Shown piece after piece: positions 16,420-57,187 of a stretch of 64,000 bases of DNA. The stretch is from a virus. The notes beneath the pieces are model-generated. The model saw only the letters and a program-made list of their open reading frames with translations. It was not told where the DNA came from and searched no databases. The position numbers and the translations under genes were made by a program. Where the stretch lies: IMG/VR virus record IMGVR_UViG_3300035684_000001, positions 96,001 to 160,000 of that record. One strand, written 5' to 3'. Position 1 is the stretch's first letter, and each line of letters begins with the position of its first letter.

Positions 16420-17223
16420 CTAATCAAAATTATCAATGAAACAGCCGCAACCACCAAGTGCCTCAAAATCAAAGGAAAGCTGCAAGGGAGCTGACTGTAT
16501 TTCCTCCCTGAACGCTTTAAGAGTAAGACCTTTAGTTACTCCATTTTTTGTGCGCCGCAAGATACCGACTGAATCATTATTTATCGATTGCAAAAACTCT
16601 TGTTCTTGTTGTTCGTGGTGCGCGTAAACATCTGGTAGATATTTTAATAAATTTCGGTAGTGTTTTAACCCTGCTTTCGTGCAAAAGCCACCACAATTGG
16701 CATGAGCAAAGCCCATGTCGTAAAGCCTAGGTTGCTTAAGGTTGTTCAGTTTGAGTTGGCGGTTAATTTCTTGCTTGTCTACCCAGCGATCGCCCCAGCA
16801 GAGTGGAGCTTCTACCTGGAATGGGTGCCAGTTTTTGGAGATCGCCTCCATCCGTTCCAACTCTTCAAATCCAATTCCAAAGTATAAAACCGTGTCATCA
16901 GGTGAAAAGTTAGCATTGATCCAATTTTCGCAAGGTTTAACCTTAAGCTCGATCGAGCAATCAGATGCGCGATGATTAATAAATCGTTTTTCATTAAAGA
17001 TATCCCACGGATTCCGACCGTCTTTAACTTTGATCAACTGACCACCAACGTTTTTCGCTGCTTCTTCTAAAAATCGGTAGTTGTCGGGGTCTTCGATAGT
17101 CGTGTCCGCAAAGACTAGCCACAAGTTATCTGTGCCAAACTTCTGAGCTATTATCTTAGCGGCAAACCATGAAGCTTTGCCGCTTGAAAAAAACACTACG
17201 TGGTTTTGTGTTGGTGCTGACAT
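16420..17223 (-). CDS. PAPS-reductase-like (PP-loop) phage protein
   Basis: VFFSSGKASW, VFADT.IED.D.YRFL, CSIELK, HANCGGFC. Confidence 0.75.
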   Translation of the reverse strand: MSAPTQNHVVFFSSGKASWFAAKIIAQKFGTDNLWLVFADTTIEDPDNYRFLEEAAKNVGGQLIKVKDGRNPWDIFNEKRFINHRASDCSIELKVKPCENWINANFSPDDTVLYFGIGFEELERMEAISKNWHPFQVEAPLCWGDRWVDKQEINRQLKLNNLKQPRLYDMGFAHANCGGFCTKAGLKHYRNLLKYLPDVYAHHEQQEQEFLQSINNDSVGILRRTKNGVTKGLTLKAFREEIQSAPLQLSFDFEALGGCGCFIDNFD

Positions 17224-17331
17224 TGTTTTGTGTGTTGATTATTATTCAATACAACAATTATACTACGAATGTAGTTAAATTGCTGTCAATAATTAACTAA
17301 ATTATTTTTGTTTACAACCTTTAAAATGATT

Positions 17332-17433
17332 TTATCTGCTAGAAGATCCCATTGATGATTCTAAAAAAATAATCCTACCAAGGATCGAACTTATTGACGA
17401 CTGAATCTCGGTTGATATTGAAAGATTAACCCC
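17332..17433 (-). pseudogene. Orphan 3' end (33 codons plus stop) of the spike gene; its first ~20 nt are the predicted TnpB guide
   Basis: GVNLSISTEIQSSISSILGRIIFLESSMGSSSR* versus GVNLSIISEIQLSIGSILSRLIVLESSTNSSSR* at 19064..19165. 77/102 nt and 24/33 aa identical, no gaps. Confidence 0.9.
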
Positions 17434-17534
17434 TTGACACTCTTCGGCCTAAAGGTGCGAGGATTCTTTCTTCATAGGGACACCAATGCGTTTACCCTCA
17501 GAAAGCTTCTTGACCGTATGTCCTACGGCTGCAA
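17434..17534 (-). ncRNA. Predicted omegaRNA scaffold and IS200/IS605 right end
   Basis: tnpB-3'-like sequence ending GAATCCTCGCACCTTTAGGCCGAAGAGTGTCAA, a typical cyanobacterial IS605 right end with terminal TCAA. Confidence 0.7.
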
Positions 17535-17634
17535 CCACCGCGTCGAGATACTCTTTGACAACACTTGTTTGATATTTACGATTACCGGGTTTGACAGACT
17601 AGCACGATCGGCGTCTTGTTTGGGAAGCCTCAAG

Positions 17635-18840
17635 TTAAGCTTCTTGGTTCGCAGGGATTCCAACGAATTTACCCTCTCCAAGCATCTTGACCGTGTGTCC
17701 CACGGCTGCAAGTCCTCGTATTAGAACTACTTGTGCTGCTGCTACATCCCTATCGGTTGTGTAACCACAGCTAGAACATAAATGTACGCGCTCCGACAAT
17801 TCTTTTTTCCCGGTTTCTACTCCACAACTAGGGCAAATTTGACTTGTCTTGTGGGCGCTTACTTTTTGGAAGTACACGCCATGCTTGAAACAGGCTTGAC
17901 CTAAAATATTAAAAAACTGACCCCAGCCTGCGTCCAAGCAATGTTTCGCTAGCATCGCCTTAGCCAACCCAACGAGGTTCAAGTCTTCGACAAAGATCGT
18001 GTCCGCGTCTTTGCATAGTTGGTGTGCCAACTTCCAGTGCCAATCTTTACGGCAGTTGGCAACGTACTCGTGAAACTTAGCAACCTTTTTTTGAGCTTTC
18101 AGTCTATTTTGGGAACCCGGTTTTTTGCGACTGACGCGCTTTTGCAGCAATTTAAGCTTGCGTTCGGCGTCAACGAAAAACTTTTGGCGCTTGACTAAAA
18201 GACCGTTAGATGTTGCGATGAAGTTTGTTAGGCCAACGTCTATCCCAAGAGCTTCGCCGTGCGGCATGACTGACGGTACGGAAACATCCCATTGTAAGGT
18301 CAGCATCACATACCAGCCGCTAGCTTTGCGGACTACTCTTGCTTGCTTGATAGTTGCACCGTCTGGAATAGGGCGCGACTGGTGAAATTTAACCAAACCA
18401 ATTTTCGGCAATTTTACTGCACCGTTCTGAATTGGGTTAACTCCCAATTGGGGGAACACAAAAGACCGCATTGCTCCCGCTTTCTTGAAGCGAGGAAAGC
18501 CGTGCTTCTGTTCCCACATACTGACGAAAGCTTTTTCAAGTCTTCGCAACGTTTGCTGCAAAACGTGTACTTGTACAGCTCCCAAGTCAGGTATCCTTGC
18601 CCTAGCAGCAGTTAAGTGTTTGCACTGACTGAGGTAAGTTGGTCGCTTTGCTTCAGCAGAAATGATAAATTCAGAGCGGATAGAGCAAGCGTTAACCTGA
18701 CAGCTACGAGATTGAAACCAATGCTTTCTCTCCGCCAGTGCGTAGTTGTAGACGCGACGACACTGTTCCAGCCAGTCTTCAAAGATGGCTGCCTGTGCAG
18801 TCGTTGGTTTCAATTTGAATTCGTAGGTTAGATTTAACAT
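17635..18840 (-). CDS. tnpB: RNA-guided endonuclease TnpB (IS200/IS605 family)
   Basis: TYEFKLKPT N-terminus; RuvC GIDVG, VEDL, DRDVAAA all intact; zinc finger CPSCG...CSSCG; no tnpA nearby. Confidence 0.95.
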   Translation of the reverse strand: MLNLTYEFKLKPTTAQAAIFEDWLEQCRRVYNYALAERKHWFQSRSCQVNACSIRSEFIISAEAKRPTYLSQCKHLTAARARIPDLGAVQVHVLQQTLRRLEKAFVSMWEQKHGFPRFKKAGAMRSFVFPQLGVNPIQNGAVKLPKIGLVKFHQSRPIPDGATIKQARVVRKASGWYVMLTLQWDVSVPSVMPHGEALGIDVGLTNFIATSNGLLVKRQKFFVDAERKLKLLQKRVSRKKPGSQNRLKAQKKVAKFHEYVANCRKDWHWKLAHQLCKDADTIFVEDLNLVGLAKAMLAKHCLDAGWGQFFNILGQACFKHGVYFQKVSAHKTSQICPSCGVETGKKELSERVHLCSSCGYTTDRDVAAAQVVLIRGLAAVGHTVKMLGEGKFVGIPANQEA

Positions 18841-19063
18841 TTGCTTACCCTCCTTTCCGAATTATAGAACATTGAATAAGGACTGAACCGATTATTCACG
18901 ATTCTTAACTAAATCCACTCTAAAAGGGCAAGGTTGTACCCAATCTTTTAGTTAATCATTTGTTCTGTGTTGCTTTTTTGGTCATATATTAGCTGTATTA
19001 CAGCCGTAGGACGCTTGGCAATAAGTAATGAGTGATTATTCTGTTTTCGATATTAATAGTGTC

Positions 19064-22000
19064 TTACCTACTAGAAGAATTTGTTGATGATTCTAAGACG
19101 ATAAGTCTAGAAAGTATCGAACCTATCGATAGCTGAATCTCGCTTATTATTGAAAGATTTACGCCATCAACAAAAACACCATCCTCGTTTATTTCGATTT
19201 CATGCAACGTTTCAGGTTCCATTCCTTCTTTAGGGTCAGACAAAGATCGGAAAATAACTTTTTTCCCCTGAATATACACAACTTCTGGCGTACATAAAAC
19301 TTCATTACAAAAAGAACCATCTTCATTAAACGATTGGATATGTGCATTGCGACCTTGAAGCGCAAACCTTGCCGCCTGTTTATCCCAGACAATCGGTTCT
19401 TCTGGTTTATCATCATCATCGTCATTGTCGTCAATCTCAACCGGGGGCTTATTGTGATCGCCAGAAAAGAATGAACTTAGCGACAGCAACCCGCTCTTGG
19501 GATCGAGCAAGACTCCCACACCTTTGGAACCGTCCTCAGAGCCGTTGCGGAACACAGTTGTACCGATTGACGACAAGGATGTTCCAGATCCGCCCATGCT
19601 CAGCATTCCGCCCAGACCTTTAGAAAGTAATTTCTTAGGACTAATGCTCAGAGAAACCTTGCCCCCAGGCCCGAGTAACTTTGTCACCTTCCCTAACATC
19701 TGAAGCCCCGATTTGCCGTCCATACCCAAAAGTTTCAATCCTTGTTCAGCCATCGCCATTTGAGAACCACCGGGTCCTAACAGTTTCACAAAATCCATGC
19801 CGATTTGCATCGCCTTTTTCCCGTCAGGACCCAACAGCTCAGCAACTTTCTCGGCAAGCTTCAATTTAGAAACTCCATCTGCTCCTACCAACTGAGAGTA
19901 AGTTTTTACCATTTCCAGCAGTCCTTTACCCGACGGACCGAGCATTTTAGCGAGTTCTTGCGTAACAACCGTCATTGCCCCCTCCTTACCGCCAGCCCAA
20001 ACAGTTGCCGATTTTTCATCGGCAAAGATATTTGTGCGGATCAACTCCCCGATCGCATCCTCGACTTGCGGACCCAGTAATTCCCCTATTTTTTCGTTGA
20101 CGTAGCTGATTGCAGCTTTCTCACCCGCACCTTTCATGCCGATGTCATTTTCCCAAGCGAACATTTCTGTCCTGACTTTTTTGCCATCTTTCTCAATGGC
20201 TGGGCCAAGGATTCCCGATTTTACTGGATCGACAAAGCTACAAGCACCATCCCCGCCAGATTTCATTGCCACAGTTCCATTTTTTTCAGCACACATGGAA
20301 CTTCTTAGTTTAGATTTTTTTGGTTTTTCTAACTCTTTTTCCTTTGCTTCACCTCCTTTTTCCATTGACTTTGCAACAAAAGGAGTGAACTTAAATCCAG
20401 CAAAATCGCTAGGCGGCTCATAATCATCGTCGTCCTGAGTTGCATCGTTGCGAATTGGAGACAGCATTTCTGCACGATTTGCCCCAACAACTGTCATAGC
20501 TCCCTCGCCCGGAGCAAACATAGCTGTTTCTTCGGATGCTGCCTGCATCCCCGATCGAGTCTTTTCTCCATTGATTTCAATCGCCGGTCCGTGCATTCCA
20601 CTTTTGGTTTCATCCGCTGAAAAGCAAGCTCCGTCACCGCCAGATTTACCGCCTACCAATCCTTTCCGATCGGCAAACAGACAAGTCCTCAATTTTTTCT
20701 TGGCTTCTGCATCTGCAAATTTGCCCGTTTTACCTTCTTCCCGATCGCCCCCCTTCTTAAATTTGACCGACTTGAGGTCAAATTCAAACCCATCATAGTC
20801 GCTGGCGGGAGGATCGTCTTGTTCATCTTTAAACTCGCCTTCTTCTCTTTCTGGACCAAGAACTTCTGCCCGATCGCGCGCAACGTAAGATATTGCACCG
20901 TCAGCAGCCTCGCTTCCTGCTTCCTGAGCGAATACAAAACTACCAGTCCGCAGTTTTTTACCGTCTAATTCAATTTCCGGACCGAAAGTCTCGGCTTTTT
21001 CTAGGTGGACGATCGATCCCGCGCCGCGTCCTCCCGATAAAGTTCCAGCCCCGCCGTAACCGTCCGCGAATAAGGAAGTTCGTACCATCCGGTCTTTTTC
21101 TTCTAGATCGTCGTACTTGGGCCGCTTTTTAGCTTCTTCCTGTTCCCCACCTTGTTTGCGACGCTGCCCTTTAGAAAATATTTTGTAACCACCTTTTTTA
21201 CCTTTACCTGGTTTATCTTCCTCGCGTTCTGGTAATTCCCCATCTTTGCGTTCCGGTCCTAGAATCTCTGCCATGCGTCGCTCTACGCGAACGCCGCCGC
21301 CTTTATCCCCTGCGGTCATACCTCCGCCAGCTTTGTCGGCAAACATAGACACTCGAAGGTTGGGAGCAAATTCCGGACCCATTATCTGAGCACCTTCTTT
21401 GCCAATGCGGGCGATCGCCCCTTTCTCACCGCGATTTGACTCCATCTGCACGTAAGTTTCGCGGGCAGTAATCCTAGCCCCTTTGGGTTCGTCGGGTATT
21501 GCGCGAAGGAGTTTGCTGTAGTCGTCGATTGCCGACTCTAGAATTGGAATCAATTTTTGCGCCAGTTCTTTGCAAGATTTAGGCAATACTTTTTCTACAG
21601 CATTTTGCAGGATATCATCGGAACTGTTGGTGATTGCAAAATGCTTGGCAACTTCTTTGAGCGGTTCAACCAGTATGTCTTTGTTAAAAAGTACGTCATC
21701 TCTAAGCAATAGAAATGCCAAAGCTTCTAACGGTGCAATCCCTTTGATACTTTTCTGCCCCTTCAATACTGCACTTAAAGTTTTTTCGGTTTTTTCAATT
21801 AATCCTTGAGTTACTTCCCCAAATAGTATTGATAGTGGAGATTCCCCCGCCACCAATTTATCCACGTTTTTTTTATCTTCTTCGATTTGTTTCGCTTCTC
21901 GATCTTTGTCGGCTAGCTGTTCTTTTGTCAAAAATTTAGCAGCTTTTAAATCTTGATTGCTGAACACCCGAGAAACTGCTTGTTCCGTCAAGGTTTCGTC

Positions 22001-23470
22001 GCCTTTGTGTAACTGGTAAACGCCCATATTGCCCTTAGCAAATTCAGAATATTCCCCGAGCTGCCCGATCGCCCCTTCTACCCTTTCCGGCAGCTCGTCC
22101 CACCACTCTTTCTCTTCTTTGATAGTAAATTTTTCTAAACGCTCTGGCTTGGGATTGATGGTATCTTCCATACCTTTGATTTTGTCCTGCAATCGCATTC
22201 TGACGATCGCGTCAATCGAATGCCAACCGTTCGGCACTATCTCGGCTATTAGTGCTTCCTTCTGCAAAACAACGTCGTACCTCAGCGCGTCCAGTGTGGG
22301 TACAATCGCGTCCAACCTTGCAAACAGAGCCTTTTTTTCCTCAGCGTCTAGCAGTGCCAGCAGTTTTTTGAGATCCTTCGGTATCATCCCCAGTGCTGTT
22401 CCGACGATCGCGCTGCCGGGTTTATCCTTGGCGACTGATTTTTCTGCGATGTTAACTATTTTGTCTAATTCAATTCTCAAAGCTTCTCGCAGTTGACCGT
22501 CTAAGCTTTCGCCCAGATCGACAGCAGGGGCTGTCTTTAGTTCCTGCAAGATTCCAATTCCTTTTGGCAGGTTCACCGCTACCCCATCTCGCAGCCTCCG
22601 CAAAACTGCATTAGCTTCGTAAATATAGTGCGACGTGCCAAATGCTCCGCTTTCAAAACCGTCAGTCAGTTTTTCTAGTTGTTTTAACAGTTTGACCCCT
22701 TGATCTAAATCTGCCGATAAAAATCCCCTAGCTTCAGAGAGCAAACGCGAATGGCGGCGCAAGGGTCCTTCTAAATGTGCATTTTTGCTGTTCAGACTTA
22801 ACTGAGATTTTTCGGCGCAGGCGATGGTAAGCGTCCCGTCTTTATTCAAATTAATGGCAGCACCGCCGAGCGATCGCGCGTTCAGATTCCCTTCCGGCGA
22901 TGCAGTGAAACTGGCATTGTCGTTCTCGATGCTCGCAGCGCCGTCTTTCATCAAATGGACTCTAGCCTTGCCCGGTGATTCTTGGAGGATAGAACCATCT
23001 CCAGAAACCGACTGAACGGCTTTACTCGCAAAAGTCTTGAAATAGGAGCCATCTTTGTCGTTGTTGATTTCAATCGTCCCGCCTGCCGACGCGCTGCCTG
23101 TGACTCCGTGCGATCGGTCGAAGTCTGGATGCGGGCGATCAACTCGGTTGTGCAAACACCCCATTATTATCAGTCTGGTAGGGTCGCCAAACATCGGACT
23201 TAAAACAACCAAACTCCCTAATCCCAGCGGACTGTGAGAACCTCCGGGTACGCCATTTGCCGTGAATTGTTCCATTACCGGAATCCAGCCGTCATCTTCG
23301 TTAGGTAGATAAGCAGTTTCGGAAAGCAAGTCACATTTGACTCTGGCGCGACCGATCTTCTCTGGATCGTTTACGTCTACGACTGTTCCCGGCATCCAGC
23401 CCATAACAAAGCCTTCTTTGATGTGCGTTGCCTGGACTTTTTCTGGCGTTATTTTGGATTCAAAGCTCAT
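19064..23470 (-). CDS. Baseplate central spike, gp5/VgrG-like, 1468 aa
   Basis: N-terminal OB-fold motif GTVVDVNDPEKIGRARVK...GWIPV...GSLVV...GDP...IIMG; C-terminal half made of Gly-rich repeats. Confidence 0.85.
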   Translation of the reverse strand: MSFESKITPEKVQATHIKEGFVMGWMPGTVVDVNDPEKIGRARVKCDLLSETAYLPNEDDGWIPVMEQFTANGVPGGSHSPLGLGSLVVLSPMFGDPTRLIIMGCLHNRVDRPHPDFDRSHGVTGSASAGGTIEINNDKDGSYFKTFASKAVQSVSGDGSILQESPGKARVHLMKDGAASIENDNASFTASPEGNLNARSLGGAAINLNKDGTLTIACAEKSQLSLNSKNAHLEGPLRRHSRLLSEARGFLSADLDQGVKLLKQLEKLTDGFESGAFGTSHYIYEANAVLRRLRDGVAVNLPKGIGILQELKTAPAVDLGESLDGQLREALRIELDKIVNIAEKSVAKDKPGSAIVGTALGMIPKDLKKLLALLDAEEKKALFARLDAIVPTLDALRYDVVLQKEALIAEIVPNGWHSIDAIVRMRLQDKIKGMEDTINPKPERLEKFTIKEEKEWWDELPERVEGAIGQLGEYSEFAKGNMGVYQLHKGDETLTEQAVSRVFSNQDLKAAKFLTKEQLADKDREAKQIEEDKKNVDKLVAGESPLSILFGEVTQGLIEKTEKTLSAVLKGQKSIKGIAPLEALAFLLLRDDVLFNKDILVEPLKEVAKHFAITNSSDDILQNAVEKVLPKSCKELAQKLIPILESAIDDYSKLLRAIPDEPKGARITARETYVQMESNRGEKGAIARIGKEGAQIMGPEFAPNLRVSMFADKAGGGMTAGDKGGGVRVERRMAEILGPERKDGELPEREEDKPGKGKKGGYKIFSKGQRRKQGGEQEEAKKRPKYDDLEEKDRMVRTSLFADGYGGAGTLSGGRGAGSIVHLEKAETFGPEIELDGKKLRTGSFVFAQEAGSEAADGAISYVARDRAEVLGPEREEGEFKDEQDDPPASDYDGFEFDLKSVKFKKGGDREEGKTGKFADAEAKKKLRTCLFADRKGLVGGKSGGDGACFSADETKSGMHGPAIEINGEKTRSGMQAASEETAMFAPGEGAMTVVGANRAEMLSPIRNDATQDDDDYEPPSDFAGFKFTPFVAKSMEKGGEAKEKELEKPKKSKLRSSMCAEKNGTVAMKSGGDGACSFVDPVKSGILGPAIEKDGKKVRTEMFAWENDIGMKGAGEKAAISYVNEKIGELLGPQVEDAIGELIRTNIFADEKSATVWAGGKEGAMTVVTQELAKMLGPSGKGLLEMVKTYSQLVGADGVSKLKLAEKVAELLGPDGKKAMQIGMDFVKLLGPGGSQMAMAEQGLKLLGMDGKSGLQMLGKVTKLLGPGGKVSLSISPKKLLSKGLGGMLSMGGSGTSLSSIGTTVFRNGSEDGSKGVGVLLDPKSGLLSLSSFFSGDHNKPPVEIDDNDDDDDKPEEPIVWDKQAARFALQGRNAHIQSFNEDGSFCNEVLCTPEVVYIQGKKVIFRSLSDPKEGMEPETLHEIEINEDGVFVDGVNLSIISEIQLSIGSILSRLIVLESSTNSSSR

Positions 23471-23553
23471 AAAACAAAAAAACCGCCAGAGAGAAACCTG
23501 GCGGGGCGTGTGTTTAATTTTTGGTAGGGCGGGCGATCGGGTGGGCGATCGGG

Positions 23554-24042
23554 CTAGCTATTTAGTTCGTCGATGTCATCGCGGTTAAATTGCAGCCCAC
23601 GTCGAAATTCCTCTTGAGTCCAATCTCGAACATGGGGATTTACTGTTCCGAATTCCTGCATTTGTGATAACCACAGACTGATCCGAGCAAAAAAGCGAGC
23701 ATCTGACATAGAATAAGCAAACGCTACAGATGGGTGAACAAAGATAGATCCTTCATCACCTCTAACGTAGTCTATCAAAGCTTTTGAGCGACTACTCATT
23801 TCTGAGTACCCGCTCTTAACGGCTAATTCTGTGTCAGCATTAGCGACTGGCAGACCCGTTAAAAGTGAAAGCTCTTCTAACACATCTTTTGCAAACTGAG
23901 TTCTAGTCCAATTGTTGAACCGCTTTCCGATCGCCTTACTGATGTCTCGAACAGACACATACCCATCCTTGCCTCGAATTTCAATTTTTTGACCGTTGTA
24001 CTCAGGAAATTGATCGAACCATGATACCATTGCTTTAGACAT
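23554..24042 (-). CDS. KilA-N domain DNA-binding protein
   Basis: YNGQKIEIR..DGYVSVRDISKAIGKRFNNW...GSIFVHPSVA. Confidence 0.8.
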   Translation of the reverse strand: MSKAMVSWFDQFPEYNGQKIEIRGKDGYVSVRDISKAIGKRFNNWTRTQFAKDVLEELSLLTGLPVANADTELAVKSGYSEMSSRSKALIDYVRGDEGSIFVHPSVAFAYSMSDARFFARISLWLSQMQEFGTVNPHVRDWTQEEFRRGLQFNRDDIDELNS

Positions 24043-55540: not shown

Positions 55541-57187
55541 ATGGACAAGGAACTAGCCGGAGCCGGAAAAATGCTATCTCAATTAAACAGCGGTCGCTTG
55601 ACAGCGGCTTTTGTTGAGATAGGTAAAACGCTCATAGCCGCAGGCGCAATCTCCGCATCAGATTTAGGAACTCTGTTTGAAGGGGTTGCAGAAACTTTTG
55701 AGGGTGAAAACACCTTAGAAGCGGGTGCAGCTATGAGCCTTCGGGAGCGATACAAGCGAGAGATTGTCTGGAGCAATTTTCGCCATTTGCTCAGCAACCT
55801 AGAATCTATGTGTAATGGAATTCTTTCCACACCTAAGGATTCAGCAGATCGACTATCTGCAATCGTTTCTGACTTTAAAGACACTTTTAACGAAATACTC
55901 AAAGAAGCATCAACCCTCGATCCGATTCCAGACGATTTTGGAATGATGCACAGAGGCGGTCTTTACTGCGCTAAAACAGAAGATCCTAGCGAGTTATCGG
56001 CTTTGCAGTTAGTGGAGTCTGCATCTCAATTAGTTGATGTAGAACTGCATTTTGGTATTGAAAAGCCGCTAATCCTTGAAAAAGCAATCGAAATTAATTC
56101 CGACGAATCTGTAGAAACTGTAGAGGCTTCTAGTCCAAATCAAAATATTACTCCGCTAAAAGGGGTGTTATTTAAAATTGACGAACCTTCCGAGTCAGCT
56201 CCTTCAAAAGGTTCTGATTATCCTCTGCTTATCCCTATGGATGTAGCGGAAAGAGCAATGGAATTTGTTAATGCCGCAAAAGGACTGCCTCTTGATGCTG
56301 ACGATTCTTTGTCAAAACACGCCAACGAAGATATTATCGGCATCATGACTTCAGCGGAAATTGATGCTTCCGATTTCGTTGTTAAAGGACATCTATTCCC
56401 TTGGAACCAAAAAGACAAGGTAGACGCAATCGCCCTAAACCAAAACAACTTGGGGATGTCTTTAAACGGAAAAGCTTCTGGGAAAATTGTCGAGATGAAC
56501 GGCTCAAAAGTTTTTGAGTTGTCCAACCTCGAAATTTTAGGGGCAAACATTCTACTTAAGAACAGAGCGACATATCAAAAAACGCGAATTTATCCGCTGG
56601 GTGAAATCGCAGCATCCGCACCAAATGAACTAGAAAACCAATCAACAGAAGGAGTAAAACCAAATATGGACTTAGAACGGGCGATCGGGGAACTCCAAAA
56701 AACTTTAGGAGAAATCAGAGCAGATGGCGCCAAGGAGGCTGAAATTGCAAAAGCCAGAATTCAGCAACTAACAGAAACAGTTAGCGCTCAACAACATTTG
56801 CTACAAACGATTCAAGCCGAACGCGACCAATCAATCGCAGTAGCTCAATCGCAAACTTTGGCGGCCCAAAAAGCCCAAGAACACCAAGAGTTAATTGCAG
56901 CTATTGGTACTGCGGTGCAATCACAAGTTCAGGCTCAAGTAGGTTCATTAAAAGAAGAAATTATCGACTCGATTAATCCTAAGCGAGTACCCCCGCGCAT
57001 GACTGGTTCTTTGGTGGGTATAACAGCAGCCGGACAGGAAAACCAACAGTCAAATGCGGTGCGCGATAAACTTTTAATTATCTCTGGAGAACTAAAAGCG
57101 TTAGGCGAGGATCAAGCTACTAATCCTCGACGTATCGCTCTATTAGACGAAGCTCACAGACTGAACCAACAATTATCTGTAAGCTAG
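55541..57187 (+). CDS. Prohead protease/scaffold fusion
   Basis: Lies between portal and capsid; central domain with H (SKHAN) and GMS; coiled-coil C-terminus. Confidence 0.65.
   Translation: MDKELAGAGKMLSQLNSGRLTAAFVEIGKTLIAAGAISASDLGTLFEGVAETFEGENTLEAGAAMSLRERYKREIVWSNFRHLLSNLESMCNGILSTPKDSADRLSAIVSDFKDTFNEILKEASTLDPIPDDFGMMHRGGLYCAKTEDPSELSALQLVESASQLVDVELHFGIEKPLILEKAIEINSDESVETVEASSPNQNITPLKGVLFKIDEPSESAPSKGSDYPLLIPMDVAERAMEFVNAAKGLPLDADDSLSKHANEDIIGIMTSAEIDASDFVVKGHLFPWNQKDKVDAIALNQNNLGMSLNGKASGKIVEMNGSKVFELSNLEILGANILLKNRATYQKTRIYPLGEIAASAPNELENQSTEGVKPNMDLERAIGELQKTLGEIRADGAKEAEIAKARIQQLTETVSAQQHLLQTIQAERDQSIAVAQSQTLAAQKAQEHQELIAAIGTAVQSQVQAQVGSLKEEIIDSINPKRVPPRMTGSLVGITAAGQENQQSNAVRDKLLIISGELKALGEDQATNPRRIALLDEAHRLNQQLSVS

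Follow-up and report, generated by a model that had tools for sequence, protein, structure and literature searches.

A tnpB-only IS200/IS605 element between two ends of a cyanophage baseplate spike gene: a possible RNA-guided home-and-rescue cassette

A baseplate hub/spike gene followed by a second version of its own end, with a transposon-derived nuclease gene lying between the two, was found in a 64,000-nt stretch of phage DNA (the window; positions 96,001 to 160,000 of the IMG/VR record IMGVR_UViG_3300035684_000001). The nuclease gene belongs to a non-autonomous element that carries only tnpB and a right-end guide-RNA module and that lies 33 codons before the end of the spike gene. The spike gene itself is unbroken, as a complete alternative end (copy A) and a 109-nt trailer stand between a TTGAT within the gene and the left end of the element. 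Judged from the sequence, this layout could let the cassette spread or exclude rival phages. The features are listed in Table 1.

Table 1. Features of the spike gene, the tnpB element and their surroundings in the window.
Feature	Position	Strand	Basis
Native downstream context: 108-nt spacer, then PAPS-reductase-family gene	16420..17331	-	Colinear with L004 6389-8619
Copy B: displaced spike end, 33 codons and stop, without frameshift	17332..17433	-	Sequence
Predicted guide template, first 20 nt of copy B	17414..17433	-	Position directly 3' of right end
Conserved right end / predicted omega-RNA scaffold module, non-coding copy of tnpB 3' end, ending in GAGTGTCAA	17434..17534	-	37-copy alignment
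tnpB-only IS200/IS605 (IS1341-type) element, 1521 nt	17434..18954	-	Empty-site comparison and ends of phage and Microcoleus copies
tnpB, 401 aa, intact	17635..18840	-	Pfam HTH_OrfB_IS605, OrfB_IS605, Cas12f1-like_TNB
Coding copy of duplicated tnpB 3' end	17641..17724	-	Copy comparison
Left end, subterminal hairpin decayed	18841..18954	-	Folding of host and window copies
Trailer, 109 nt, from copy A stop to element, ending in TGAT (18958-18955), outside the IS	18955..19063	-	Boundary comparisons
Copy A: resident last 33 codons and stop of spike gene	19064..19165	-	Sequence
Baseplate hub/spike gene, 1468 aa, intact, ending in copy A	19064..23470	-	ORF list
TTGAT within spike gene, TAM-type site where copy B homology begins	19166..19170	-	Sequence; family target TGAY
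Approximate foreign 3' tract of spike gene, co-conversion-like, running on through copy A	19166..19420	-	Identity drop against L013

The spike gene was assigned by its Pfam Phage_base_V domain (residues 27-107) and by PHROG 430, baseplate hub subunit, and has six relatives with 80-92% identity. The phage is a soil-crust cyanophage, and the spike gene is an essential one. Copies A and B are each 102 nt long and align without gaps, with 77/102 nt and 24/33 amino acids identical and the stop codon at the same position. In the 60 nt upstream of the two copies only 16/60 positions are shared, which is the random level; therefore, the homology begins exactly after TTGAT in copy A and after GAGTGTCAA in copy B. 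The first base of copy B lies directly 3' of the right end of the element (17434), so that the right end precedes in copy B what follows TTGAT in copy A. In silico removal of 17434-19165 gave an in-frame spike gene with end B. The first-pass annotation had proposed the two gap-free ends flanking an intact tnpB, the exact start of their homology and the intact gene left by this deletion, and all its coordinates and counts held.

The gene order is gene core, inserted end, nuclease gene and displaced end. Copy B was identical to the ends of L013 and L004 at 81-84/102 positions (79-82%), indistinguishable from the 75-80% of copy A in the same comparison; every allele differs by 18-25% in these last 102 nt. 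With a pN/pS of 0.18-0.48, the same as among functional alleles, copy B looks like a functional, natural allele. The 108-nt spacer that follows it contains a promoter-like site (TTGACA-18-TAGTAT).

The boundaries of the element were set by comparing an empty site in G000 (position 56796) with the filled site L006, together with the ends of the phage and Microcoleus copies. The empty site reads CACATGAC followed directly by AACTC, whereas in the sister phage CACATGAT is followed by the IS and then by AAGCC; in the host copies, YTGAC precedes the left end and GTCAA ends the right end. By these sequence comparisons, TGAY is established as the target motif of the lineage, lying outside the element. 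Therefore, the TTGAT in the spike gene is a compatible site, in agreement with its first reading as a TAM-like sequence. The element is inserted 3' of this short conserved target without target-site duplication, and ends in TCAA. Its right end is a genuine, family-wide transposon end, as GTCAA terminates 59 distinct copies and the end is identical across all phage and host copies. The proposed right end at 17434 was thus upheld, but the left end, thought to adjoin the in-gene TTGAT, had to be moved: it lies at 18954, behind a second TGAT, and 109 nt separate it from the copy A stop. The in-gene and left-end TGAT are two canonical junctions 211 nt apart, so the cassette is not one clean transposition unit, and insertion with recombinational rescue is indicated. 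With its second junction at the left, the cassette must have arisen in two or more steps and is not necessarily an evolved unit.

The subterminal hairpins that serve the Y1 transposase are no longer both complete in the window copy. In host copies the left end forms a CGCCC..GGGCG hairpin of -10 to -13 kcal/mol, which is lost from the window copy; the right-end stem of the window copy has one C.A mismatch. No Y1 transposase was found in the window phage or in the sister phage; the Microcoleus genomes carry 3-5. The window copy is an IS200/IS605 member by descent and, by these folds, is probably no longer mobilisable by TnpA. Only 114 nt separate its left end from tnpB, which starts 223 nt beyond the stop of copy A. 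The lineage is common in Microcoleus and has long resided in this group of cyanophages. Right-end remnants are scattered in G000, and a tnpB-less derivative (L008) is present in G003, which points to frequent insertion and decay.

The spike tract upstream of copy A is, by sequence identity, clearly foreign relative to the nearest relatives of the phage. At a breakpoint 331-383 nt ahead of the spike stop, the identity of the window to L013 drops from 89-97% to 68-78%, whereas L004 keeps 84-93% identity to L013 (change-point 2dLL 50.8; Fisher p 7e-9). The foreign tract terminates at the cassette. In the trailer, the first ~30 nt weakly resemble the spike 3' UTR of L004, and its last 25 nt are similar to the sequence left of the sister element in L006, which shared second place with two other sites when 2939 TGAY-anchored sites were ranked.

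TnpB matched ISDra2 TnpB (8BF8, 8H1J) with an E-value of 5e-35, with the GIDVG, VEDL, DRD and CxxC..CxxC motifs aligned. The protein is full length, and its RuvC D-E-D triad and zinc finger are intact. Against the L006 copy, tnpB had a dN/dS of 0.086 at ~17% nucleotide divergence between the two phage copies, and by this measure is under strong purifying selection. The 3' end of the gene is duplicated, a derived feature common to both phage copies and missing from host copies with measured ends. Moreover, in the phage copies the 5' part of the host-type scaffold was swapped for an unrelated spacer; the scaffold module is kept between them, the neighbouring spacer is not. The scaffold predicted with RNAalifold from 37 copies has compensatory changes in 14/32 predicted pairs, and matched no Rfam family.

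The guide role of 17414-17433 is predicted from its position and from the literature on ISDra2 and Geobacillus TnpB (PMC10055086). Compared to the resident copy A site, this 20-mer has mismatches at positions 3, 6, 19 and 20, those at 3 and 6 being synonymous; a recount reproduced the differences first reported. The resident site is the sole TAM-bearing near-target of the predicted guide in the phage's own genome. As TnpB binding is reported to be permissive of mismatches (PMC10055086), self-immunity by two seed mismatches is uncertain.

At the spike site, natural alleles carry TTGAT or TTGAC and differ from the predicted guide at 2-4 positions. Relatives with the exact guide-type allele had been expected, but searches of viral, metagenome and protein collections gave no uninterrupted allele that matched the guide exactly, the closest being that of L013, with 2 mismatches behind TTGAC. 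The cassette was absent from all six spike relatives examined, and no second phage carrier was found. The 3-4 guide mismatches per 20 nt in relatives are those expected at ~84% genome identity; therefore, they give no sign of selection for escape. As a whole, the first-pass reading was borne out for the layout, the right end, the TGAY target and the integrity of TnpB, and not for the exact target allele or a second carrier.

The most likely explanation is an in-gene insertion that was rescued by recombination and now has home-and-rescue properties; taken whole, it could as easily be wrong as right. Host TnpA acting in trans would have put the element into a B-type spike gene at TTGAY, and recombination with a more divergent A-type phage would then have restored the gene, either by a crossover between two element copies, by TGAT microhomology joining, or by homing of a ready-made cassette. 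TnpB and its omega-RNA would be programmed against uninterrupted B-type spike alleles behind TGAY, with the resident allele set apart from the guide at the TAM-proximal positions 3 and 6. When phages infect together, the cassette could cleave an essential gene of the rival genomes, and homologous repair could then copy it in along with a working gene end. The outcome would be a natural home-and-rescue selfish element or a phage-competition weapon. That it operates as a working natural RNA-guided home-and-rescue gene drive in phages, with a TnpA-independent TnpB, a recoded cleavage-resistant end and a guide taken from the displaced end, is a tentative proposal and a rather doubtful one.

A serious competitor, falling somewhat short of an even case, is that a host-derived IS struck the spike gene once and only a recombinant with a regained gene end survived, TnpB being inactive or serving mere element maintenance and copy B lying at the guide site without consequence. 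Such a history would agree with the failure to find the exact target allele or a second cassette-bearing phage, with the two separate TGAT junctions, and with the lost left-end hairpin and weakened right-end stem. It is harder to reconcile with an intact tnpB kept under low dN/dS across the divergence of two phage copies that share a phage-specific architecture, with intact catalytic residues and with conservation of the scaffold module next to a spacer that is not conserved; and, if TnpB is active, cleavage at TGAY plus B-type sites would follow automatically. In G003, the sister element disrupts a small gene for which there is no replacement copy; this fits simple survivorship, rescue being seen only where the gene is essential, and the frequent insertion and decay in G000 and G003 also favour a passive origin.

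Purifying selection that persists despite a decayed transposase-recognition hairpin could also mean that TnpB was domesticated, as a TldR-like RNA-guided regulator or in some other non-nuclease role in the phage, and phage-encoded TldR proteins exist (PMC13418256). This is improbable, as the residue loss or truncation typical of TldR is not seen in the full-length protein with its D-E-D triad and zinc finger, and the match of the guide is to the end of a coding gene and not to a promoter. A switch, by which the phage would alternate two spike C-termini through deletion of 17434-19165, has still less to commend it: the deletion is in frame and both ends look functional, but no recombinase, inverted repeats or joint across the deletion was seen, TnpA cleaves beside the left-end hairpin, here decayed, and not 211 nt upstream, and the change would go one way only.

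The sequence was found in one DNA run only. Independent contigs of this run span both junctions at 100% identity, with depths of 14.7, 15.6-15.8 and 16.4 in flank, element and flank; therefore, the element is single-copy and contiguous. No cassette-free joint was present in the contigs of the source sample, which drop rare variants. An assembly chimera of two strains with different spike ends, joined via the repeated tnpB sequence, is hardly credible: short-read contigs do break within tnpB, owing to the many host copies in the sample (depth up to about 1250), but unitigs specific to the phage within tnpB match the window at 100% identity, with a depth equal to that of both flanks, G000 has one tnpB and one spike, and a strain giving the junction of right end and copy B would itself need the element inside its spike gene.

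The closest published analogue is the mobile endonuclease ORF (mORF) of fungal mitochondria, known from atp6 of Allomyces macrogynus and from atp6, atp9, cox2 and nad3 of Glomus (PMC3630166). There, too, an inserted C-terminus, the endonuclease gene and a displaced C-terminus follow the gene core in this order, the inserted one being foreign and the displaced one native in the mORFs; as here, the inserted C-terminus diverges and the gene stays functional. mORFs spread by cleavage of the element-free allele and repair, as may be proposed here (PMC3630166). However, the mORF endonucleases, of the LAGLIDADG or GIY-YIG type, recognise DNA on their own, whereas here an RNA would do so, with the displaced end as guide.

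ISDra2 and the Geobacillus ISGst (PMC10055086; 8BF8, 8H1J) share with the cassette a TnpB with RuvC D-E-D and zinc finger, and a right end that closes with TCAA and has a structured scaffold. In both, insertion is on the 3' side of a short TAM, which is TGAY here and TTGAT in ISDra2, and leaves the target unduplicated; the guide is templated (here by prediction) by the DNA adjoining the right end, and the element is non-autonomous and depends on a host Y1 transposase. In contrast to them, here a full replacement gene end plus 109 nt separate the left end from the in-gene TAM, the left-end hairpin is decayed, the duplicated tnpB 3' end means that ORF and scaffold no longer overlap, and the guide is predicted to match other genomes, in an allele of a phage structural gene, instead of the donor site that the element has vacated.

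The free-standing homing endonucleases of T-even phages (SegF, SegG and Mob; intronless homing, marker exclusion) also combine a phage nuclease beside a conserved gene, few target substitutions that part self from non-self and a co-conversion tract beside the nuclease gene, and nuclease genes at phage mosaic boundaries similarly lie where genetic exchange ends (PMC10448857; review PMC13565253). Unlike the T-even enzymes, the nuclease here is RNA-guided, transposon-derived and inside the original gene, whose end is duplicated. In plasmid populations, TnpB drives IS spread without TnpA by 'non-restorative homing' (PMC11870625). The cassette may be likened to this TnpA-independent drive, in which TnpB cuts element-free copies of a multicopy replicon and the element-bearing copy wins, but that work concerns insertions needing no gene rescue, with no phage case and no replacement gene end (PMC11870625). 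IStrons (group I intron plus TnpB, PMC10690162) also place an IS605/IS607-type TnpB element within a gene that is spared; here, no intron was found in an Rfam E-value scan of 16500-20000, and it is a spare gene end, at the level of DNA, that rescues the gene. As the first-pass annotation had supposed, no published TnpB case with this layout was found in the literature.

TnpB protects its own transposon after excision. If the proposed reading is true, a phage-borne, transposase-independent TnpB element would extend TnpB drive to homing between viruses: it would interrupt an essential structural gene, supply a mismatched spare end and keep the displaced end as its guide. Engineered cleave-and-rescue and home-and-rescue drives would also gain a natural counterpart in it. 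Such elements could help to explain the retention of intact tnpB by phages, and also why hypervariable gene ends and mosaic boundaries are clustered at these sites.

The spike gene encodes a 1468-aa protein with an OB domain of the gp5/VgrG type and a PHROG match to the baseplate hub. It ends as ...GTT GAT/GGC GTA AAT ... TAA (slashes mark junctions here and below), and the tnpB start lies 223 nt past its stop. The conserved element end, ...GAGTGTCAA, terminates at 17434, and a second version of the last 33 spike codons plus stop (end B) begins at the very next base, gap-free with respect to the resident version (end A). The two ends share 77/102 nt and 24/33 residues, with only 16/60 identical positions, the random level, in the 60 nt upstream of each. 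The first-pass annotation had described both the two gap-free ends flanking an intact tnpB and a homology start exactly after TTGAT, and the alignment confirmed these points; its expectation of an intact gene after deletion also held, as in-silico removal of 17434-19165 gave an in-frame spike gene with end B. One correction to the first picture concerns the left end of the element, which lies after AAATGAT and is separated from the in-gene TTGAT by end A and a trailer. Both junctions of the cassette (end A, trailer and element) are canonical for the element family, yet they lie at two separate TGAT sites 211 nt apart.

Features of the spike-tnpB locus, with positions in the window
Feature	Position	Strand	Length	Placement
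KilA-N domain gene	23554-24042	minus		upstream of spike
Spike gene	23470-19064	minus	1468 aa	first segment in order, up to TTGAT; closed by end A
End A	19165-19064	minus	102 nt	directly after in-gene TTGAT
Trailer ending in TGAT			109 nt	between end A and element
tnpB element	18954-17434	minus	1521 nt	after trailer
tnpB	18840-17635	minus	401 aa	within element
tnpB 3'-end duplicate, coding copy	17641-17724			first in order
Unconserved spacer				between coding copy and conserved module
tnpB 3'-end duplicate, second copy	17464-17547			
Conserved non-coding module	17534-17434		101 nt	closes element
End B	17433-17332	minus	102 nt	directly after element right end
Spacer			108 nt	after end B
PAPS-reductase-family gene	16420-17223	minus		after spacer, downstream of end B

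End B keeps its stop and has no frameshift. Its pN/pS against other alleles was 0.18-0.48, compared with 0.21-0.30 for functional alleles among themselves; it either was displaced recently or gained its differences while still functional. As the last 102 nt are 18-25% apart in all lineages, A and B included, end B cannot be shown to be the 'native' one.

The IMG/VR record containing the window (188.5 kb, estimated to be 67% complete) has one tnpB and one spike gene. The TnpB protein is intact, contains the three Pfam domains of its family and matches ISDra2 TnpB with an E value of 5e-35, in an alignment that retains the D-E-D residues of RuvC and the two CxxC pairs. Its nearest relatives are dozens of copies in Microcoleus genomes (up to 89% identity), and five related loci were found in three further large phage contigs. 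G003 (IMGVR_UViG_3300036939_000082) is a sister phage with about 84% identity; its tnpB, 92% identical to the window copy, lies elsewhere in the genome, at locus L006. This locus is empty in the record under study, G000 (CACATGAC/AACTCTCACT), and filled in G003 (CACATGAT/TAATAAAAAC...GAGTGTCAA/AAGCCTCACT), which fixes both element ends and places the target motif TGAY outside the element, with no target duplication. Host copies from Microcoleus agree, with YTGAC before the left end, GGAGTGTCAA as the right end and a length of 1345-1346 nt; the limits of the window element were obtained by the same alignment. No flank duplications were found around the other phage copies (L005-L009). The element is by descent an ordinary IS200/IS605 tnpB-only element.

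The sister tnpB element of G003 lies directly after ATGAT at the start of a small gene (MTTLTFDEINY...), within a segment of about 550 bp inverted between the sisters (G000 56510-57058, outside the window, against L006:2578-4630). The G000 version of this gene is open for 123 codons and its C-terminal part switches at the inversion border. In another phage contig, IMGVR_UViG_3300035686_000002 (151.7 kb), a full tnpB lies near one end and a second copy is cut by the other end; the left flanks of these two loci (L005 and L007) differ, and L005 is flanked on its right by sequence that runs antisense into an acidic coding region. Solo right-end hairpin remnants (..CCTTTAGGCTGGGGAGTGTCAA) were detected in G000 outside the window, at 188426(+), 181037(-), 952(-) and 180297(-), and G003 has a tnpB-less, PATE-like derivative consisting of a left end and the right-end module (L008:2926-3330). 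These remnants and the derivative indicate that this IS lineage has inserted and decayed repeatedly in these phages.

Between the window and L006 copies of tnpB, dS was 0.51 and dN 0.044 (dN/dS 0.086). The last ~28 tnpB codons are duplicated in the window copy, in L006 and in the tnpB-less L008, and owing to this duplication the ORF and the guide-RNA scaffold do not overlap. The duplication is missing from the host-like phage copies L005 and L009 and from the Microcoleus copies with measured ends. This shared derived character suggests that the tnpB divergence, under purifying selection, probably arose in phage genomes. The right-end module showed a conserved fold over 37 copies, and 14 of its 32 pairs carry compensatory changes, which is the expectation for an omega-RNA scaffold; it matched no Rfam model, and folding of the scaffold as a single sequence was uninformative (z -0.6). 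Host copies fold a left-end hairpin, CGCCC..GGGCG, at -10 to -13 kcal/mol; this hairpin is weak in L006 and L008 and has disappeared from the window copy, whose terminal right-end stem contains a single C.A mismatch. No Y1 transposase is encoded in either phage (G000 or G003), and Microcoleus genomes encode three to five. From the hairpin decay and the lack of a Y1 transposase in the phages, the window copy looks immobile by TnpA, with tnpB and scaffold retained.

Between the tnpB stop and the scaffold module (17535-17640, minus strand), two degenerate motifs resemble the right end; they end in TGTCAA, at 17591 and 17555, and unique sequence follows each of them. Similar stretches occur in L006 and L008. 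The motifs may be nested remnants, or a repeat-spacer arrangement at an early stage; a mini-array reading was rejected, the 16-mers after them matching none of the compared sequences.

Regarding the origin of the layout, the junction of the right end with end B lies at a TGAY-homologous position, so a B-type spike gene must have received an insertion of the transposase type. Such an insertion would strip an essential virion protein of its last 33 residues, so that a viable phage would need a new gene end. This could come from a crossover inside the element, the partner of the broken phage being an A-type phage in which this element followed a TGAT located 109 nt past the spike gene, from illegitimate joining at the TGAT microhomology, or from homing of a cassette already in its present form. 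The sister element of G003, just after a small-gene start codon, brings no replacement end, which fits survivorship, a spare end being seen where the interrupted gene is essential. The structure, and that it arose by insertion plus recombination, can be regarded as nearly certain.

The window spike gene is 89-97% identical to its metagenomic relative L013 until ~330-380 nt before the stop and 68-78% identical thereafter, whereas the G003 spike (L004) and L013 remain 84-93% alike over this final stretch (change-point 2dLL 50.8; Fisher p 7e-9). Accordingly, the last part of the spike gene and end A form a block of foreign origin that is bordered on the right by the right end and presumably also takes in the trailer and the element. 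Local alignments of the trailer with the L004 spike 3' UTR, the flank of locus 2 in G000 and the L006 left flank gave z values of 0.8-2.0, each alone non-significant. Its first ~30 nt weakly resemble the G003 spike 3' UTR and its last 25 nt, also weakly, the sequence to the left of the sister element; in a TGAY-anchored test against the latter, the trailer tied second with two other sites among 2939 (~p 1e-3), the unanchored test being non-significant. These resemblances, two weak hints, point to recombination and not transposition as the means by which the left flank moved with the element. The foreign block resembles a co-conversion tract beside a homing element, and is equally what recombinational rescue leaves. 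That the locus is a passive scar of insertion is a real possibility, somewhat short of an even chance.

The only run with the locus was a biocrust metagenome, in which depth over the tnpB region exceeds 1000 owing to other organisms. Independent contigs of the public run, at 100% identity, cover 16800-17709 and 18694-19800 and hence both junctions, and phage-specific unitigs inside tnpB have a depth of 15.6-15.8 against 14.7 and 16.4 in the flanks, which fits a single element copy per phage genome, joined to both flanks. An assembly chimera of phage strains is highly improbable given the identical junction contigs and matching depth, and one of the strains would in any event have to carry the element within its spike gene. 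The source-run contigs listed included no cassette-free joint, from which absence does not follow as contigs lose rare variants.

Six spike relatives were found, namely that of G003 and five metagenomic proteins. None has a tnpB after the spike gene, and the downstream genes differ in every relative. In L004, L013, a further metagenomic relative (L014) and three more contigs, these genes include a 212-aa ORF, a GH19-like gene, and LRR and pentapeptide proteins, among others; variation along the spike gene is highest in its last ~130 nt, even when L004 is compared with L013. The end of this gene is a mosaic boundary.

Site alleles were compared for the relatives with DNA available. Against the guide position (the first 20 nt of B), the resident allele, GTTGAT/GGCGTAAATCTTTCAATAAT, has four mismatches, at positions 3, 6, 19 and 20, in agreement with the first reading; the G003 allele, ATTGAT/GGTGTTAATCTTTCGATTTT, also has four, and that of L013, GTTGAC/GGGATTAATCTTTCAATATT, has two (positions 4 and 20). 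A search for cassette-free guide-type alleles, as had been proposed, gave no exact one, the best being L013 behind TTGAC, and no second cassette carrier was found. The mismatches in relatives do not exceed the expectation from ~84% overall identity. In its own genome, the A site is the sole near-match to the guide position with a TAM; GTCAA/GGGGTAAATC at G000 171267 was discarded, as it has no scaffold upstream and is a chance match. Exact and degenerate DNA patterns of the TAM-plus-guide site recovered nothing besides G003 in viral contigs and nothing in metagenome contigs, megablast with 17200-23500 gave no match in the phage GenBank collection, and poorly chosen protein patterns of the spike C-terminus retrieved no relatives from metagenome contigs. 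The spike C-terminus had no match in 79 Microcoleus genomes and five named sequences, so there are no prophage alleles in that set.

The same order, in which a gene core is followed by a foreign end, a nuclease gene and the displaced end, is well documented for fungal mitochondria, where the nuclease is a protein homing endonuclease, as in Allomyces atp6 and Glomus atp6, atp9, cox2 and nad3 (PMC3630166). The window layout also resembles intronless homing in T-even phages, and differs from IStrons, in which the same problem of in-gene insertion is solved by an intron, a feature that this locus lacks. A literature search found no description of this layout with TnpB, in line with the first-pass annotation; a cyanophage preprint from 2026 describes a phage tnpB that does not differ from the host copies, but not this architecture.

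In the ISDra2 and Geobacillus systems, the omega-RNA ends with ~16-20 nt templated by the DNA beside the right end, and TnpB cuts DNA bearing a TAM followed by a guide match (PMC10055086). By analogy, the predicted target would be an uninterrupted B-type spike allele behind TGAY, and TnpB would cut an essential gene of a co-infecting phage with this allele. The cassette genome would then serve as the repair template, and end A, trailer and element would be copied in, with homology provided by the spike gene on the left and by end B and beyond on the right. Self-immunity through the mismatches at positions 3 and 6 is plausible for ISDra2-like enzymes, reportedly in line with Karvelis et al. 2021. 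It is not certain, as TnpB binding has been reported to be permissive of mismatches (PMC10055086). With no exact target allele, second carrier or cassette-free joint found, and with mismatches at expectation, the full statement, that is structure, origin by insertion and recombination, and a homing or exclusion consequence, is about evenly balanced. TnpA-independent drive of this kind has been demonstrated for plasmids (PMC11870625), and a 2026 review names it as a theoretical possibility between co-infecting phages (PMC13565253). That the cassette may act as a homing or exclusion element is tentatively proposed, as a possibility on the doubtful side.
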